This document shows, piece by piece, positions 2,512 through 61,859 of a DNA stretch of 61,859 bases (positions within the stretch are counted from its first letter, which is position 1; each line of letters begins with the position of its first letter). The DNA lies in NCBI GenBank assembly GCA_964632795.1, contig CAZWEZ010000006.1:1-61859 (forward strand), written 5' to 3'. The notes under the pieces are model-generated. The model worked only from the letters and a program-made list of their open reading frames with translations. It searched no databases and was not told the origin of the DNA. Source of the stretch: an uncultured Thalassospiraceae bacterium (GTDB lineage: Bacteria; Pseudomonadota; Alphaproteobacteria; Rhodospirillales; 2-02-FULL-58-16). The translations under genes and the position numbers were made by a program.

Positions 2512-3444
2512 TCAGTTATCCTTCTTGCCGAAAGCCTCGCGGGCGATTTCGCTGATGCCGCCGATCGACGCGATCACGCTCGAAGCCTCGAGCGGCATGA
2601 ACAGAATCTTCTGATTGCTGCCGTGGGCGAATTCCTTCAGGGACTCGACATATTTCAGGGCGACGAAGTAGTTGATGGCTTGTATGTCGCCTTCGGCGAT
2701 CGCCTTGGACACCAACTGGGTCGCCATGGCCTCCGCCTCGGCCAGGCGTTCGCGCGCCTCGGCGTCGCGGTAGGCGGACTCCTTGCGGCCCTCGGCGGCG
2801 AGGATCACCGCCTGTTTCTCGCCCTCGGCCTTGAGGATCTCGGCCTGGCGCAGGCCCTCCGCCTCCAGGATGTTGGCGCGTTTGTCGCGCTCCGCCTTCA
2901 TCTGGCGGGCCATCGCGTCGACGATGTCACGCGGCGGGTCGATGTCCTTGATCTCCACACGGGTGACCTTGACCCCCCACGGCGTGGTGGCTTCGTCGAT
3001 CACGGCGAGCAGCCTGGCGTTGATGTGATCGCGCTGCGACAGAAGCTCGTCGAGGTCCATCGAGCCCATCACGGTGCGCAGGTTGGTCATCGCCAGGTTG
3101 AGCATGGCGTTTTCCAGGCTGGTCACCTCATAGGCCGCCTTGGCGGCGTCGAGCACCTGGAAGAACACCACGCCGTTGGCGGTGACCATGGCGTTGTCCT
3201 TGGTGATCACCTCCTGCTTGTCGACATCGAGCACGGTTTCCATGACGTTCATCTTGGCCCCGATGCGGTCGACGATCGGCATGATCATGTGGAACCCGGG
3301 GCGCAAGGTGCGGGTATAACGGCCGAAGCGCTCGACCGTGAACTCCCACCCCTGGGGCACCGGCTTGACGCTCATCATGACGAGCACCACGGAGAGCACC
3401 AGAAAGGTGATGACAAATATTGTAAAGCCGCCTATTTCCGGCAT
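2512..3444 (-). CDS. qmcA: SPFH/stomatin-like protein (QmcA family)
   Basis: ERFGRY, VITKDNA, WGVKVTRVEIKDI, MARQMKAER. Start moved to ATG 3444, which has a GAGGAGG RBS. Confidence 0.93.
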   Translation of the reverse strand: MPEIGGFTIFVITFLVLSVVLVMMSVKPVPQGWEFTVERFGRYTRTLRPGFHMIMPIVDRIGAKMNVMETVLDVDKQEVITKDNAMVTANGVVFFQVLDAAKAAYEVTSLENAMLNLAMTNLRTVMGSMDLDELLSQRDHINARLLAVIDEATTPWGVKVTRVEIKDIDPPRDIVDAMARQMKAERDKRANILEAEGLRQAEILKAEGEKQAVILAAEGRKESAYRDAEARERLAEAEAMATQLVSKAIAEGDIQAINYFVALKYVESLKEFAHGSNQKILFMPLEASSVIASIGGISEIAREAFGKKDN

Positions 3445-55330: not shown

Positions 55331-56509
55331 TCAGGCCATGGCCCCGGTTCCCGGATAGGCCTTTTGAAATGGCTCGTCGTCTTCGAAGCGGGTCGGCCGA
55401 TAGGGCTCGATGGGGAGGATTCGACTGGCCCCGAATGCCATCTTCTCGGCCACCATCATGGAGATGCACGGGGCAAGTTTGAAGCCGCCCCCGGAGAGGC
55501 CGCAAATCGCGATCAGGCCGTCTTTCCCGGGAAAGCCCCCGATCAGGGGGTTGCTGTCGGGCGAGATGTCGTAGCGTCCCGCCCAGTGCGAAGTGATACG
55601 TCCGCCGTCGAGGCCGCGGAAGCAGTTCTCTAAATTCCGCAGGAAATGTCCGGCGCCGTCCCTTGGCAGGCTCTCATCGAGGGGATCGGGACGGGTCATG
55701 GCGCTGCCCCTGTTGGAGTCGCCGAACAGCATCCCGCCGTCTTGCGGGCGGTTGTAGCAAACCCCGGGAAGGTCGCGGACGACGGGGAATCGCTTGCCCG
55801 CATATTCCTCGTCGAAGCCAAAGTGGACGACCTTGTGATTGGTAATTTCGTACGGATAGTGAATTCCAACGGTCTCGGTGAGGGTGTTGGTCCACGCCCC
55901 GGCGGCGACGACCACGGTTTCACCGCATATGATCCCGTCGTCCGTTTCCACCCCGTCGACCTTGTCCTCCCGGGATTCCACCAGACGCCGGACGCCGACG
56001 CCCTGGCGGATTTCGACGCCCCCTCGGCGGGCCGCGTCGGCATAGCCGGTGGTTGTCAGGTGCGGATCGGCATAACCCGATAAGGGCTCGTATGCCGCCA
56101 GGGCGATGCGGGCGGGATTGAGCAGGGGATGGATTTCCAGGGCCTGACGGGTGTCGATCAAGTCGACCTCGGCGCCGGTTTCCCGTTGCATCTTGATGTT
56201 GCGCCGCAAATCTTCCGCTGCATCGGCGTCCGAGAAGATCAAATAGCCGCATCTCTCGAACCCCGATGAGCCACCGACCCGCTCGCTGAAATCGGCCAGA
56301 ACGTCGCGCCCGGTGGTGGCCATTCGGCAGGTCAGCGGATTCGAATAGTGGGTGCGCACGATGGCGCAACTCTTCGCGGTATCGCCCGAACATACGGCGC
56401 CTTTGTCCAATATTAGAATGGAACGGCCGTCCAATTCGGCCAGATAGAATGCAAGGGAGCATCCGATCACGCCGCCGCCGATGATTATCGTGTCGTAGGC
56501 CTTGGCCAT
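55331..56509 (-). CDS. FAD-dependent amine oxidoreductase (DAO/SoxB family)
   Basis: IIGGGVIGCS, GDTAKSCAIVRTHY, VVAAGAW, WAGRYDISPD..P.IG, GLSGGGFK. Start at ATG 56509 with a GGAGG RBS. Confidence 0.9.
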   Translation of the reverse strand: MAKAYDTIIIGGGVIGCSLAFYLAELDGRSILILDKGAVCSGDTAKSCAIVRTHYSNPLTCRMATTGRDVLADFSERVGGSSGFERCGYLIFSDADAAEDLRRNIKMQRETGAEVDLIDTRQALEIHPLLNPARIALAAYEPLSGYADPHLTTTGYADAARRGGVEIRQGVGVRRLVESREDKVDGVETDDGIICGETVVVAAGAWTNTLTETVGIHYPYEITNHKVVHFGFDEEYAGKRFPVVRDLPGVCYNRPQDGGMLFGDSNRGSAMTRPDPLDESLPRDGAGHFLRNLENCFRGLDGGRITSHWAGRYDISPDSNPLIGGFPGKDGLIAICGLSGGGFKLAPCISMMVAEKMAFGASRILPIEPYRPTRFEDDEPFQKAYPGTGAMA

Positions 56510-56601: not shown

Positions 56602-56631
56602 TTGACACGGGCAACCGGGAAACATTAGTGT
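56602..56631 (+). promoter_or_regulatory. sigma70 promoter TTGACA-18-TAGTGT placing +1 at or near the phnR ATG
   Basis: -35 at 56602-56607, -10 at 56626-56631, ATG at 56638; no SD in between. Confidence 0.6.
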
Positions 56632-56637
56632 ACATCC

Positions 56638-57435
56638 ATGAATCAAACTTGGTCTATACCAGAAGCGGATACGTGGTCTATACCAGATAATGCCCGGAGA
56701 TCGTGGGACCGCAAAATTCCCTATTACTTGCGCATTCGGGATCATTTCGCGTCATTGATAGATACCGGCCGGTTGGCTCCGGGGATGAAACTGCCCCCGG
56801 AACGCACGCTCGGCGACCGCTTCGCCATTACCAGGGTCACCGTCCGTCAGGCGCTCATGCAGCTCGAGGCCGAAGGGCTCATCTATCGGCAAAACCGCCG
56901 CGGCTGGTTCGTTTCACCGCCGAGGATCCAATACGATCCGACCGCCAACGTCAGTTTCACCGAAAGTGCGACGCGCCAAGGCCGGGTCCCCGGCATAACC
57001 GTCTTGTCGAAGGAACGAATTCCGGCCACCACTTGGGAGAGCGAATACCTCGACATCGCCGAGGGCGATCCGATTTTTCTCATTCGCCGGCTGCGCTCGG
57101 TCGACGGACGCACGGTCCTCCTCGAGCACATTCATGTGGTTGCCGAGAGATTCCCCGGTCTTCTGGAGCACGCGCTCGACAGCTCGTTGACGGAATTGAT
57201 ATCCGAGCAGTACGGGGTCAACGAACATCGCGCCCGGATCGTCATGCGCCCGACCGCGTTGTCTGACCTCCAGGCCCGGGCCCTGGAGGTCGCGGCGGGG
57301 ACGCCCAGTTTGTATCTTTGCCGGGTCATTCACGATCAGTTCGACAATGTGATAGAATTCGACCAGGAGTTCTGGCGTTTCGATGCGCTCGATATCTGTG
57401 TCGGGGTAAACGAAACGGCGCAAGAGGAAACATAA
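56638..57435 (+). CDS. phnR: GntR/HutC-family regulator, PhnR-like (wHTH + UTRA)
   Basis: KLPPERTL...[41 protein letters not shown] closely follows the PhnR pattern (GLIYR.DRRGWFV.P.R...DPT). Confidence 0.82.
56650..56685. promoter_or_regulatory. Operator pair TGGTCTATACCA x2 (56650-56661, 56674-56685)
   Basis: Identical 12-mers, near-palindromic, of the HutC/PhnF-type operator pattern. Confidence 0.85.
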
Positions 57436-57463: not shown

Positions 57464-58219
57464 ATGACCGGTGAAACACCGATCGTGGTGGTCAACGATA
57501 TCTGCAAGACCTTCGACGTCCCGGGGCGCGACCCGGTCCATGCCCTTCAACACGTTACCAACCACGTCGACAAGGGCGAGGTCCTGGTCCTGATCGGACC
57601 GAGCGGTTCCGGCAAAAGCACCTTCCTTCGGGCGCTCAACGGACTGGAGGCCGTCGACAGCGGCTCCATCGTCATCGACGGCGTCGAGCTCACCGACCCC
57701 AAGACAAACCTCAACAAGTTGCGTCAGGGCGTCGGCATGGTTTTCCAGCACTTCAACCTGTTCCAGCACAAGACGGCGCTTGAAAACATCACCATGCCCC
57801 AGACGGTGGTTCTCAAGCGCTCCCAGCAGGAAGCCGACGAAATCGGCCACCAACTGCTCGAGCGCGTCGGCATCGGCGACAAGGTGGATTCCTATCCAAG
57901 CCAGCTTTCCGGCGGTCAGCAGCAACGCGTCGCCATCGCCCGTTCGCTGGCCATGACCCCAAAGGTCATGCTGTTCGACGAAGTGACATCGGCGCTCGAC
58001 CCGGAAACGATCGGGGGCGTGCTCGATCTGATGGTGGAACTGGCCGCCGACGGCACGACCATGGTCGTCGTCACCCACGAAATGGGCTTTGCCCGCAAAG
58101 CGGCCGACCGCGTCATTTTCATGGACCAAGGCAGGATCATCGAAGAGGGTCTTCCCGACACCGTCTTCGACGATCCCCGGCACGAGCGCACCCGCACCTT
58201 CCTGAGCCAGATTATTTAG
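57464..58219 (+). CDS. Polar amino-acid ABC ATP-binding protein
   Basis: [43 protein letters not shown]. Confidence 0.95.
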
Positions 58220-58270: not shown

Positions 58271-58305
58271 TGGTATAGACCAGAATTAAAACCTGGTCTA
58301 TACCA
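58271..58305. promoter_or_regulatory. Operator pair TGGTATAGACCA (58271-58282) and TGGTCTATACCA (58294-58305)
   Basis: The same 12-mer as in phnR, once in each orientation, upstream of the SBP gene. Confidence 0.85.
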
Positions 58306-58397: not shown

Positions 58398-59210
58398 ATG
58401 AACCGATTCACCAAACTGCTAACTCTGGGTATCTGCGCATTGGGACTGAGCGTGTTTGCCCACAACGCGTTGGCCGATGTGGTCAGCGATATCGTCAAGC
58501 GGGGGGAATTGCGCGTCGCCGTACAGACCCAGGGACCACCGGTGAGCTACGTCGACACCAAGGGCAACCGCACCGGCTTCGCGGTCGAGCTCGTCAAGAT
58601 GATGGCCGAGGACATGGGCGTGAAGCTCAAGCTTCTCGACTACGACTGGAAGGGACTGATCCCCGCCGTCACTTCGGGCAAGGCTGATTTCCTGGCCGCC
58701 GACATGACGCCTAAGCCCAAGCGTGCGCTGGTTCTGATTTTCACCGAACCGTACATGTACAGCCGAAACGTCATTTACGCGAAGAAGTCCAAGCCGTTCA
58801 GGAAATGGCAGGACGCCTGCGTCAAGGGTGTCTCGGTCGCCGTGGTCCAGGGCAGCAGCAACGTCGGAGTGCTCAAGGCCAAGTGCCCGCTGGCGACGAT
58901 CAAGGAATTCGCCGGCGGCGGGCCCGCCGTCGCCCAGGCCGTCTCCGCCGACCGCGCCGATGCCGGGATCAACGACGAGGCCTCGGCAAAAGGGTATATG
59001 ATCGAGTATCCGGAATTCTGGATTCTCGATGGCGCGCCCGATAGAGGGCCGCTCAGCTTCGCCACCCGGCCCGAGGAAACCCACCTGGTCAGGTGGATGG
59101 ACAACTACTTGATGTTGATCAAGGCCGACGGCCGCATGGACAAGCTCTTGGACTACTGGATGTTTGGCACCGCCTGGAAGACGGAGCAGACGCCAGTGCC
59201 GAAACAATAG
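58398..59210 (+). CDS. Polar amino-acid ABC substrate-binding protein (family 3)
   Basis: Signal peptide; GELRVAV, GFAVEL...A.DMGVKL, W.GLIPA..SGKAD. Confidence 0.93.
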   Translation: MNRFTKLLTLGICALGLSVFAHNALADVVSDIVKRGELRVAVQTQGPPVSYVDTKGNRTGFAVELVKMMAEDMGVKLKLLDYDWKGLIPAVTSGKADFLAADMTPKPKRALVLIFTEPYMYSRNVIYAKKSKPFRKWQDACVKGVSVAVVQGSSNVGVLKAKCPLATIKEFAGGGPAVAQAVSADRADAGINDEASAKGYMIEYPEFWILDGAPDRGPLSFATRPEETHLVRWMDNYLMLIKADGRMDKLLDYWMFGTAWKTEQTPVPKQ

Positions 59211-59238
59211 GCGAAGATAAGCGCCTTCGTTGCGATCC

Positions 59239-59269
59239 CGGGGGCTCCGCCGGCATGGTGGAGCCCCCG
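59239..59269 (+). terminator. Stable stem-loop between the SBP and permease genes
   Basis: CGGGGGCTCC/GGAGCCCCCG perfect 10-bp arms with no U tract; more likely an mRNA-stability hairpin than a true terminator. Confidence 0.5.
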
Positions 59270-59310
59270 TTATAGCGACCGGACAGGTTCCGGAAATCCG
59301 GCGGTAATCC

Positions 59311-59994
59311 ATGGATTGGATCCTCGATTTCTACAACTACCGCGTCGCCGTCCAGTATGTACCGGAGTTCACGCGGGGCATTACGGCGACCGCCTGGATT
59401 TCGGCGGTGTCGCTGGTTTTGTCCCTGGTCATCGGCACGGTGGCCGCCATCATGCGGATGTCCGCCAACCCGATCCTGTGGCGCATCGCCGCCGGCTACG
59501 TGCAGGCGATCCGCTCGACGCCGCTGCTGATCCAGATCTATGTGATCTATTTCAGCCTGCCGGCGCTGCCCCTGCTCGGCCGCCGCCTGGACGAGATCGA
59601 AGGGGGCATCATCGCGCTCGGCCTCAACGCCGGCGCCTACATGAGCGAGATCATCCGCGCCGGCATCGAGTCCATCTCACGCGAGCAGGTCGAGGGCGCC
59701 CAGTCCGTCGGCATGACCTATCTGCAGCGCATGCGTCACGTGGTGCTGCCGCAGGCTTTCGCCAACGTCCTGCCGCCGCTGCTCGGCCAGACGGCGGTTC
59801 TCATCAAGGACTCATCCCTGGTCAGTTTCATCGGCGTCTTCGAGCTTTTCGGCGCCGGCTTGACGGTTCTCAGCGAGCGGCTGATGCCCAACGAAGCGTT
59901 CCTTACGGTCGCCGTCCTATACCTGGCGATTTACGGGGTCATGCTGTTTCTCTCCGATTACGCTCAGCGCCGACTGGGCGGGGTTCGGGGCTGA
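59311..59994 (+). CDS. Polar amino-acid ABC permease
   Basis: RSTPLLIQ, GAYMSEIIRAGI, EGA.SVGM, KDSSL. Confidence 0.94.
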   Translation: MDWILDFYNYRVAVQYVPEFTRGITATAWISAVSLVLSLVIGTVAAIMRMSANPILWRIAAGYVQAIRSTPLLIQIYVIYFSLPALPLLGRRLDEIEGGIIALGLNAGAYMSEIIRAGIESISREQVEGAQSVGMTYLQRMRHVVLPQAFANVLPPLLGQTAVLIKDSSLVSFIGVFELFGAGLTVLSERLMPNEAFLTVAVLYLAIYGVMLFLSDYAQRRLGGVRG

Positions 59995-59995
59995 T

Positions 59996-60670
59996 ATGAC
60001 CACGTTCGATGTGATTTCGGCCACCATGCCCTTCCTTCTGGAAGGATTGTGGATGACCTTCAAGATTTCGCTCATCACTATCATCTGCGGAAGTCTGCTC
60101 GGCTTCGTCGTCGGGATGCTGCGTACGGTGGGCGGCTGGCTCGTTTACGCGGCGCTGGGACTTTACATCCATACGTTGCGGGGGACGCCGTTCCTGGTCC
60201 ATCTCTACATCATTTACTTCGTGCTGCCGGCGACGGGAATTTCGTGGCTGCAGCTGGAAGCCTTTCCGGCGGCGGTGATCGCCCTCAGTCTCTACACCTC
60301 GACCTACGTGTCGGAGATCGTGCGGGCGGCGATCCAGGCGGTGCCCCGCGGCCAGACCGAAGCGGCGCGCTCGACCGGAATGACGACCCTACAGTGCATG
60401 TGGCACGTGGTGCTGCCCCAAGCCCTGAAACTGATGATCCCGCCGATGGGCGGTATTTACGTCATCATCATCAAGGGCACTTCCATCGTCTCGGTCATCG
60501 GCATCGCCGAGTTGGTCCGGGCCGGTGAACACGCCACCCAGCGCCACCCCAGGGAACTGATGGTGATCTACGGTCTGACGGCGCTGATGTACTTCACCTA
60601 CTGCTATCCCGTCCTGCGTATCGCCCGCTGGGCCGAAAGCAAGTTCGGCAGCGTTCGCTTGCCGTCGTGA
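59996..60670 (+). CDS. Polar amino-acid ABC permease
   Basis: RGTPFLV, YVSEIVRAAIQAVPRGQTEAA, KGTSI. Confidence 0.94.
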   Translation: MTTFDVISATMPFLLEGLWMTFKISLITIICGSLLGFVVGMLRTVGGWLVYAALGLYIHTLRGTPFLVHLYIIYFVLPATGISWLQLEAFPAAVIALSLYTSTYVSEIVRAAIQAVPRGQTEAARSTGMTTLQCMWHVVLPQALKLMIPPMGGIYVIIIKGTSIVSVIGIAELVRAGEHATQRHPRELMVIYGLTALMYFTYCYPVLRIARWAESKFGSVRLPS

Positions 60671-60721: not shown

Positions 60722-61753
60722 ATGGAAATCGAAAACAGAAGAATTCGGCTTGGAGTCCACTCCGTCAGCTTTGCCAACCATCGCCGCTACAAAGAAGGCT
60801 TCGATGTCTACGCCCTGATCGATGCGGCGGCGGGCCTCGGCGTGTCCGGGGTCCATATCAGCCTGAATGACGCCAATTACCGCTGGATTGGCGGCACCTC
60901 ACCGGGCCGGCTTCGGGCCGTCGGCGAGGCGGTGCGGGCGCACGGCATGTTTTTGGAAATCGACACCTCGGGGACCGGCGAGGAACACCTGATCAAGCTC
61001 CTCAATGCCGCCCGGATGCTCGGCGCGGACCGGCTCAGAACCTATGTCACGGTGGAGGGAAGCCCCGAGGAAAGGGCGCTCGCGACCATCCGCGGTCTAC
61101 GCGGGGCGGTGCCCGTCGCGGCGGATCTGGGAATCATGCTCCTGCTTGAAAATCACGAGGACTTCACCGGCCGGGAGATCGCTCGCATCATGGAGGAGGT
61201 GGACCACCCCTCGGTCGGAGCGTTGTACGATTTCGGAAACTCGATGATGGTCCTGGAGGACCCCATGGAGGCGGCAAAGGCGATGGCGCCCTTCGTCCGC
61301 ACGGTTCATTTGAAGGATCACATCCTGACCGAGGACCCCGGCCTCTCCGGCGCGGCGGCGGGGGAGAACACGATCGTGTGTGGGGTGCCTATCGGCCGGG
61401 GGAACATCGATATCGAGGGAATCCTCGGCTTCCTGCTGAAAAACACCAACCTGAACCGGGTGTGCATTCAGAGCGTTTACGGTTACCGGGCGCCTATCGC
61501 CAGAAACCTGTCCCATCTTGGAGAGGCGGCGCGGCGGTATCCGGTTTTCGTTCGTGAAAACGGCCTTTTGGACGAATCCATCTGTATCATGGACGCCGAA
61601 TCGCTTTCCCGCGTCGATCCCGGCCGACTCCTGAACTACGAGCTGAGCGCCGTTGCGCTGGGGGTCGGGAAAGTGCGAGAGATCCTTGTCGACCTTGGCT
61701 TCCATTTCGTTTCCAGCGGCCTCTGCGTGGAGTACAAGCAAAGGGCCGGATGA
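60722..61753 (+). CDS. Xylose isomerase-like TIM-barrel protein (sugar phosphate isomerase/epimerase family)
   Basis: LLLENHED, LYDFGN and VHLKD metal motifs, G.GNID. Confidence 0.85.
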   Translation: MEIENRRIRLGVHSVSFANHRRYKEGFDVYALIDAAAGLGVSGVHISLNDANYRWIGGTSPGRLRAVGEAVRAHGMFLEIDTSGTGEEHLIKLLNAARMLGADRLRTYVTVEGSPEERALATIRGLRGAVPVAADLGIMLLLENHEDFTGREIARIMEEVDHPSVGALYDFGNSMMVLEDPMEAAKAMAPFVRTVHLKDHILTEDPGLSGAAAGENTIVCGVPIGRGNIDIEGILGFLLKNTNLNRVCIQSVYGYRAPIARNLSHLGEAARRYPVFVRENGLLDESICIMDAESLSRVDPGRLLNYELSAVALGVGKVREILVDLGFHFVSSGLCVEYKQRAG

Positions 61754-61859
61754 TTGCCCTCCGGGAACCGATAGCGGCCTGCGTCATTAGAGCATTCCAG
61801 GATTGATCACGTTCACGCGATCAATCCACGTTCAAACGCCACGCAGGCTTACGCCCGCT

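Follow-up and report, generated by a model that had tools for sequence, protein, structure and literature searches.

Putative in-frame operator boxes in the first codons of a predicted leaderless GntR-family repressor gene from an uncultured Thalassospiraceae bacterium

Regulator gene and its putative operator boxes

The stretch of DNA analysed here, hereafter the window, covers 61,859 nucleotides (nt) of contig CAZWEZ010000006.1 (assembly GCA_964632795.1) from an uncultured Thalassospiraceae bacterium. One of its plus-strand open reading frames (ORFs) encodes a 265-amino-acid GntR repressor of the HutC subfamily (hereafter the regulator), which is followed by the genes of an ATP-binding cassette (ABC) importer and preceded by a divergently oriented oxidoreductase gene. 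The element in question is the very beginning of the regulator gene, where two copies of a putative operator, boxes 1 and 2, form part of the coding sequence. Coordinates of all features are given in Table 1.

The regulator is built of a GntR winged helix (PF00392; residues 30–92, E = 5.4e-19) and a UTRA effector-binding domain (PF07702; residues 114–250, E = 2.1e-31). This architecture is common to NagR (YvoA) of Bacillus subtilis and DasR of Streptomyces coelicolor, which are also the closest solved structures (PDB matches, E ~1e-26). The AlphaFold2 model was confident over the UTRA part, whereby the predicted local distance difference test (pLDDT) values of both domains ranged from 84 to 98. 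The N-terminal tail, which carries a W-(S/T)-I-P repeat, is predicted to be disordered, with pLDDT values of 31 for residues 1–10 and 52 for residues 11–20. The best curated family, TIGR03337 (PhnR), aligned end to end with residues 29–257 at 255.1 bits; its model begins at regulator residue 29 and has no counterpart of residues 1–28. Assignment of the regulator as a PhnR equivalog was nevertheless rejected, since the score lies below the curated cut-off of 296.75 and no phn genes are nearby. Specifically, phnW, phnX, phnA and phosphonate-type transporter genes were not identified among the regulon genes of the window, whose contig ends at position 61859. The codon usage of the regulator gene differs from that of its surroundings: ATA accounts for 6 of its 19 isoleucine codons, in comparison with 4 of 135 in seven neighbouring genes.

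The original prediction, made from the letters of this DNA, had proposed two in-frame operators encoding a repeated WSIP. Indeed, the exact 12-mer TGGTCTATACCA occurs twice in this part of the gene, both times in frame. It includes GTcTAtAC, which fits the palindromic GT-N-TA-N-AC core of dre-like operators, and the regulator locus carries four copies of it. In the crystal structure of NagR with GTGGTCTAGACCAC, the protein makes base-specific contacts to the guanines (GG) of each outer half-site (PMC4333415). The box found here is a putative operator of the same type, with a core differing from that of the NagR site by one central base. Within the ORF, the tryptophan codon TGG is the counterpart of the NagR-contacted GG, and the proline codon CCA of its partner CC.

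The box is strongly enriched in the window, with 11 strand-matches at two or fewer mismatches; 100 shuffles gave 0.91 on average and never as many as 11. A search of the 3.78-Mb assembly with the degenerate pattern TGGWMTAKACCA returned boxes 1–2, a second pair further downstream at the same locus (boxes 3–4, see below) and one lone site elsewhere; the 12-mer was paired nowhere else in the genome. This fifth site, TGGAATAGACCA (contig 20, 35301–35312; positions 1502–1513 of locus L085), falls within a GC-rich coding region without a partner box and was regarded as a chance occurrence.

Promoter geometry and translation start

For comparative analysis, 80 related loci were taken from species-representative genomes. 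About 25 of them encode proteins 53–69% identical to the regulator over the whole length; these originate from Alphaproteobacteria (Rhodospirillales, Hyphomicrobiales and Rhodobacterales), Gammaproteobacteria and SAR324.

In the window, the hexamers TTGACA and TAGTGT are separated by an 18-nt spacer, and six nucleotides (ACATCC) lie between TAGTGT and the ATG of the regulator. An upstream extension of the ORF is precluded by the TAG of the -10 hexamer, which is an in-frame stop. No GGAG-like Shine-Dalgarno sequence fits before the ATG, because the -10 hexamer occupies that place. All elements of the proposed TTGACA-18-TAGTGT promoter in front of an ATG at 56638 lacking a Shine-Dalgarno sequence are present. 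The accompanying remark that the next in-frame ATG would cut into the DNA-binding region is correct in that Met50 lies inside the GntR domain, except that this codon is located at 56785 and not at 56786.

Anchored on the ATG, 23 loci share the arrangement aTTGACA-N17/18-TAnnGT-N6-ATG without indels. The aTTGACA is invariant at -35 to -30, one base further upstream in the window and in L019, and TAnnGT occupies -12 to -7; the start at the conserved place is ATG in all 22 loci having one. In two SAR324 loci, the ATG is situated exactly one codon further upstream, and the promoter is shifted along with it. Given this conservation of the promoter-ATG geometry, the regulator mRNA most likely starts at, or within 1–2 bases of, the AUG, and neither a leader nor a Shine-Dalgarno sequence would take part in its translation. 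A possible third box upstream of the -35 hexamer was also considered and discarded: the box-like TGGACTATCTCA is present in L021 and L014 only, in a region that is otherwise unconserved.

Several features of the alignment point to translation from the first ATG onwards. Across the loci, the first 19 codons contain no stop in frame 0 (0/437), as opposed to 24/414 and 40/414 in the other two frames, and the sole indel is one whole codon. Nearly all of the 120 database homologs have one of two beginnings, either MNxxW(T/S)IPxxxxWSIP or, for a sub-group, a start immediately in front of a single box. In the variable codons 2–4, 9–12 and 17–19, variability peaks at the third position (permutation p = 0.004). 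Codons 20–30 have a plain coding pattern, with mean entropies of 0.30, 0.26 and 1.26 at the three codon positions, and from codon 20 on, synonymous changes are frequent at codons for Arg, Lys, Ser, Asp, Pro and Tyr.

A number of observations speak against a leaderless start with translated boxes. The hexamer TAGTGT shares three of six positions with TATAAT (T1, A2 and T6), the promoter was not called by a consensus promoter scan of the window, and additional promoters may exist further upstream. Moreover, L001 lacks the usual ATG, its distance from the -10 hexamer to box 1 being 2 nt shorter, and an ATG is found between its boxes (at about 2975–3040 of that locus). L025, from Roseovarius sp. 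CAU 1744, has kept box 1 with an in-frame TAG; its ATG is likewise located between the boxes, and box 2 is decayed to I-S-I-S (2975–3010). These two variants mean that translation of box 1 is dispensable and that some relatives are not leaderless. Finally, the third-position periodicity upstream of box 2 (codons 2–4 and 9–12) is borderline (p = 0.057), which leaves the open frame and the conserved ATG as the main arguments that box 1 is translated.

Some of these points would also suit an mRNA with a leader, in which ATG 56638 is still the start and the boxes are still both codons and operators, while the main promoter lies further upstream. The TTGACA...TAnnGT would then be something else or a minor promoter, and the ATG would be used without a Shine-Dalgarno sequence. 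Such an arrangement is compatible with the weak -10 hexamer missed by the scan and with L001 and L025, which seem to use an ATG approximately 30 nt downstream of the same promoter without a clear Shine-Dalgarno sequence. We consider it unlikely, however, as neither the hexamers nor their spacing nor the 6 nt that separate them from the ATG vary among 23 diverse loci, the DNA further upstream is unconserved, and the SAR324 promoter moved with its ATG by one codon.

Considerably less probable is translation from a non-canonical codon downstream of the boxes, with the operators in a 5′ untranslated region (UTR) and a fortuitously open frame. The original prediction had pointed out that a start downstream of 56690 would have this consequence, and it had passed over the in-frame TTG at 56728 (Leu31). 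Both this TTG and an ATT at 56716 are available in frame in the window, the boxes themselves bring no stop in any frame, and the periodicity upstream of box 2 is borderline. Against this stand the absence of frame-0 stops, the restriction of indels to one whole codon and the ATG at a fixed site. Furthermore, the orthologs offer no conserved candidate: they have no conserved start codon from box 2 up to codon 20, the ATT of codon 27 and the TTG of codon 31 are not retained, nor is any other possible start in their place, and no Shine-Dalgarno sequence precedes either codon. Substitutions are already of the coding type in codons 20–28, with no start codon before them. Judged by this comparison, a non-canonical downstream start is very unlikely.

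DNA-level constraint on the box codons

A codon alignment of the window with 23 orthologous loci provided 176 columns with a conserved amino acid and degenerate codons, over which the relative synonymous entropy averaged 0.72. It was below 0.2 in just four columns, all of them box codons (6, 7, 8 and 15). Box 1 is frozen at codon 6 (ACT in 22/22), codon 7 (ATA in 23/23) and codon 8 (CCA in 24/24). In box 2, codon 15 is ATA in 23/24, and the right half is more variable (CCA, TCT or TCA). The codons used in the boxes are rare in eight genes of the window: ATA makes up 10 of 154 Ile codons, TCT 3 of 126 Ser codons and CCA 8 of 106 Pro codons. The first 80 nt of the regulator mRNA fold no better than shuffled sequences (z = -0.11), and hence an RNA hairpin does not explain the conservation of the boxes.

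The alignment shows that the constraint on the box DNA exceeds what the protein would need, i.e., a constraint at the DNA level is combined with an open frame. As far as can be judged from sequence, the DNA signal of the boxes is primary and its translation incidental, since L025 keeps box 1 despite the in-frame TAG; the W-(S/T)-I-P repeat would accordingly be a by-product of an in-frame operator. The disorder of residues 1–20 in the AlphaFold2 model accords with such incidental translation. The opposite idea, that the repeat is kept for protein function, with its likeness to the intergenic 12-mers incidental and the boxes within the ORF unbound, could draw on the conservation of the motif at the N-terminal end of most of the 120 homologs and on the protein-level conservation of the adjoining residues 20–28, but it is hardly credible: the synonymous sites of codons 6–8 are invariant and Ile15 is ATA in 23/24 despite the rarity of these codons, the 12-mer is also conserved, in both orientations, outside coding DNA, box 1 of L025 is intact though with a stop codon, and the residues concerned are predicted to be disordered.

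Second putative operator pair and the downstream genes

The ABC transporter ATPase gene is probably co-transcribed with the regulator gene, and nearly all orthologous loci have kept the two genes in this order. Boxes 3 and 4 lie in the non-coding gap between the ATPase gene and that of a solute-binding protein (SBP; 58398–59210). The box 12-mer, in either orientation, is conserved in this gap in 16 orthologous loci. TAGACC within box 3 and TATACC within box 4 are 17 nt apart, and those orthologs in which the right half of box 4 has decayed read TAnnnT at this place (TATAAT, TATACT, TAGTGT, TACTCT or TACGCT). Boxes 3–4, overlooked in the original prediction, thus seem to be the SBP promoter itself. 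The gene for a xylose isomerase-like enzyme with a triosephosphate isomerase (TIM) barrel is probably the last of this operon; it follows the permease genes in L025 as well. In L025, the SBP operon is inverted and diverges from the regulator gene.

Table 1. Features at the regulator locus of the window (+1 is the A of the regulator ATG).
Feature	Position	Strand	Basis and remarks
HutC-type GntR repressor gene	56638..57435	+	28-amino-acid N-terminal extension holds both boxes
-35 hexamer TTGACA of regulator promoter	56602..56607	+	sequence; conserved in 23 loci
-10 hexamer TAGTGT of regulator promoter	56626..56631	+	sequence; TAnnGT conserved in 23 loci
ATG start codon, predicted transcription start (+1 = A)	56638..56640	+	7 nt after -10; ATG fixed in 22/24 loci
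Putative operator box 1, TGGTCTATACCA	56650..56661	+	codons 5–8 (W S I P), +13..+24
Putative operator box 2, TGGTCTATACCA	56674..56685	+	codons 13–16 (W S I P), +37..+48
ABC transporter ATPase	57464..58219	+	PF00005; 28 nt after regulator stop
Putative operator box 3, TGGTATAGACCA on + strand	58271..58282	-	non-coding; includes -35-like TAGACC
Putative operator box 4, TGGTCTATACCA	58294..58305	+	non-coding; 23 bp from box 3; includes -10-like TATACC
Solute-binding protein and two permeases, polar-amino-acid-type ABC importer	58398..60670	+	PF00497, PF00528; synteny conserved; predicted regulon target
Xylose-isomerase-like TIM-barrel enzyme	60722..61753	+	PF01261; no NCBIfam match
Divergent DAO-family oxidoreductase	55331..56509	-	PF01266; 392 amino acids from MAKAYD; candidate regulon member

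Proposed mode of regulation

Overall, the regulator is likely a leaderless autorepressor with HutC-type operators in codons 5–8 and 13–16 of its own gene, and with a second operator pair through which it would repress the SBP genes. The leaderless start with in-frame operators, as put forward in the original prediction, has gained strong comparative support from the promoter geometry, the open frame 0, the frozen synonymous sites and the non-coding copies of the box. Repressor binding and its release by an effector are taken from the behaviour of the GntR/HutC family.

According to this scheme, a sigma-70-type promoter whose -10 hexamer ends 6 nt before the ATG would transcribe the regulator gene, and a dimer of the regulator would bind each of the 12-bp dre-like palindromic boxes at +13..+24 and +37..+48. 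The bound regulator would block RNA polymerase at or just past the promoter, whereby the regulator-ATPase transcript would be autorepressed. Boxes 3–4, located 1.6 kb downstream, overlap the -35-like and -10-like elements, and the SBP, permease and TIM-barrel genes would be repressed by promoter occlusion. A small molecule bound by the UTRA domain would lift the repression, as in other members of the family. Autorepression from positions +13 to +48 is plausible. Since box 1 overlaps the downstream edge of the promoter-bound RNA polymerase, a roadblock is not separable here from a block of open complex formation and initiation or of promoter escape.

Divergent neighbour gene

The divergent gene codes for a flavin adenine dinucleotide (FAD)-dependent oxidoreductase of the DAO family, which scored below all NCBIfam cut-offs and had N-methyl-Trp oxidase as its best match. 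It is the neighbour in three loci only: the window, L001 and L010. In 16 other loci (L003–L006, L008, L009, L012–L017, L020, L021, L024 and L030), this place is taken by a 298-amino-acid SerB phosphoserine phosphatase (TIGR00338, 203 bits against a cut-off of 144), encoded on the minus strand approximately 90–108 bp upstream of the regulator ATG. A soxB-family gene follows serB in at least L005, and a DAO-family match is present there in L006 and L009. FAD enzymes of the DAO oxidoreductase family (PbfC, PbfD) recur in phosphonate catabolic clusters (PMC10590968).

Boxes 1–2 had been proposed to control the promoter of the divergent oxidoreductase gene as well. As a general feature this did not hold. 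Neither the divergent neighbour nor the DNA between it and the regulator -35 hexamer is conserved, and the intergenic DNA of L001 and L010 does not align with that of the window. A strict scan of the window found no promoter for the oxidoreductase gene. A relaxed scan gave one weak candidate on the minus strand, TAGACC (inside box 1)-18-TACACT, which is not conserved in L001 and L010.

On the minus strand, at 56650–56685, boxes 2 and 1 read TGGTATAGACCA-N12-TGGTATAGACCA, i.e., the arrangement of the putative SBP promoter, with one additional base in the spacer. Boxes 2 and 1 could, on this strand, be a face-to-face divergent promoter, albeit with a poor -10 (TAGACC or TAGTCC). A more far-reaching version, to which we give rather little credence, would see the whole layout as a selected travelling cassette. 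Boxes 1–2 would then serve as an early block on the plus strand and at the same time as the -35 and -10 of a face-to-face divergent serB/oxidoreductase promoter, mirroring boxes 3–4. The W-x-I-P tail, together with the conserved basic RKSWDRK stretch, would have acquired a role in the repressor, e.g., as an N-terminal arm on DNA. Were this true, one pair of sites within the ORF would switch two overlapping promoters.

The serB and soxB-like neighbours, together with the DAO-family gene in the window, hint at a phospho- or N-methyl-amino compound as the substrate taken up by the cassette.

Evolution of the in-frame boxes

In the maximum-likelihood tree, all loci with boxes inside the ORF form one clade (28 rows, support 100/95), and the two-box form is a sub-clade of it (22 rows, support 99/97). 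The box of the single-box proteins (L022 and L023) corresponds to box 2 in the alignment, and these loci share the leaderless geometry. The sister group is a Marinobacter/Oceanospirillaceae clade. In this sister clade and in Pseudomonas relatives (41–50% identity), the gene starts 6–13 codons before the helix-turn-helix with a normal Shine-Dalgarno sequence, and TGGTCTAnnCCA-like boxes lie upstream of the start; the N-terminal tail is absent in the sister clades.

The simplest history would be that an operator-bearing leader was absorbed into the ORF once an ATG at the transcription start came into frame, and that a later duplication of 8 codons (24 bp) yielded the second box. The mixture of taxa in this clade and the codon use of the regulator gene, unusual for the genome, suggest that the cassette has spread horizontally.

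Relation to known systems and significance

The dre operators of NagR and DasR are located in promoter regions before genes, in contrast to box pair 1–2, which lies in codons. Both proteins lack the 28-residue N-terminal extension, and their effectors are amino-sugar phosphates. To our knowledge, a leaderless start has not been reported for either of them. PhnR, the regulator of 2-aminoethylphosphonate utilisation in Salmonella, represents the best-scoring family, but the transporter in the window is of the polar-amino-acid type.

Operators inside coding sequences include lac O2 in lacZ, gal OI in galE and the purR operator in the purR ORF. Leaderless, autoregulated repressor genes with a promoter directly before the AUG are represented by cI and cro of phages lambda and PY54 (PMC4488713), and C.PvuII is a leaderless autoregulated controller gene (PMC2175313). 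In all of these leaderless genes, the operators or C-boxes are non-coding and upstream of the transcription start, whereas in the regulator gene they are downstream of it and in codons. In Deinococcus deserti, where 60% of the mRNAs are leaderless, transcription starts were found up to 20 bp upstream of RDRM, the DdrO sites (PMC4007540). The lac O2, gal OI, purR and RDRM sites are auxiliary or not described as conserved in frame. In the present case, the two operators are predicted to be the primary autoregulatory ones, and they occupy the same in-frame codons throughout several bacterial classes, with a peptide repeat and frozen synonymous sites. A literature search for in-frame operators in a leaderless autorepressor returned leaderless repressors and the loosely related Deinococcus case and no match, which is not proof of novelty. 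Each component is precedented, and no description of the combination, i.e., in-frame primary autoregulatory operators conserved across classes together with their peptide shadow, was found in the literature searched.

If the proposed reading is right, the locus would be a clear and deeply conserved example of a bacterial overlapping code, in which the binding site of a transcription factor fixes the codons, rare ones included, of the factor's own N-terminus. The W-S/T-I-P motif resembles a protein feature and would be the shadow of a DNA signal. The family would offer a natural system for the limits of superimposing coding and regulatory constraints and would show how a gene that becomes leaderless can take its 5′ UTR into the ORF. 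It could also be used to test whether initiation or early elongation is the step affected by a repressor bound at +13 to +48. For annotation, the comparison supports the start call at 56638 for this regulator family, which a Shine-Dalgarno-based gene caller could easily shift. Finally, it defines a predicted operator and a small regulon for an uncharacterised, horizontally spread marine uptake cassette.

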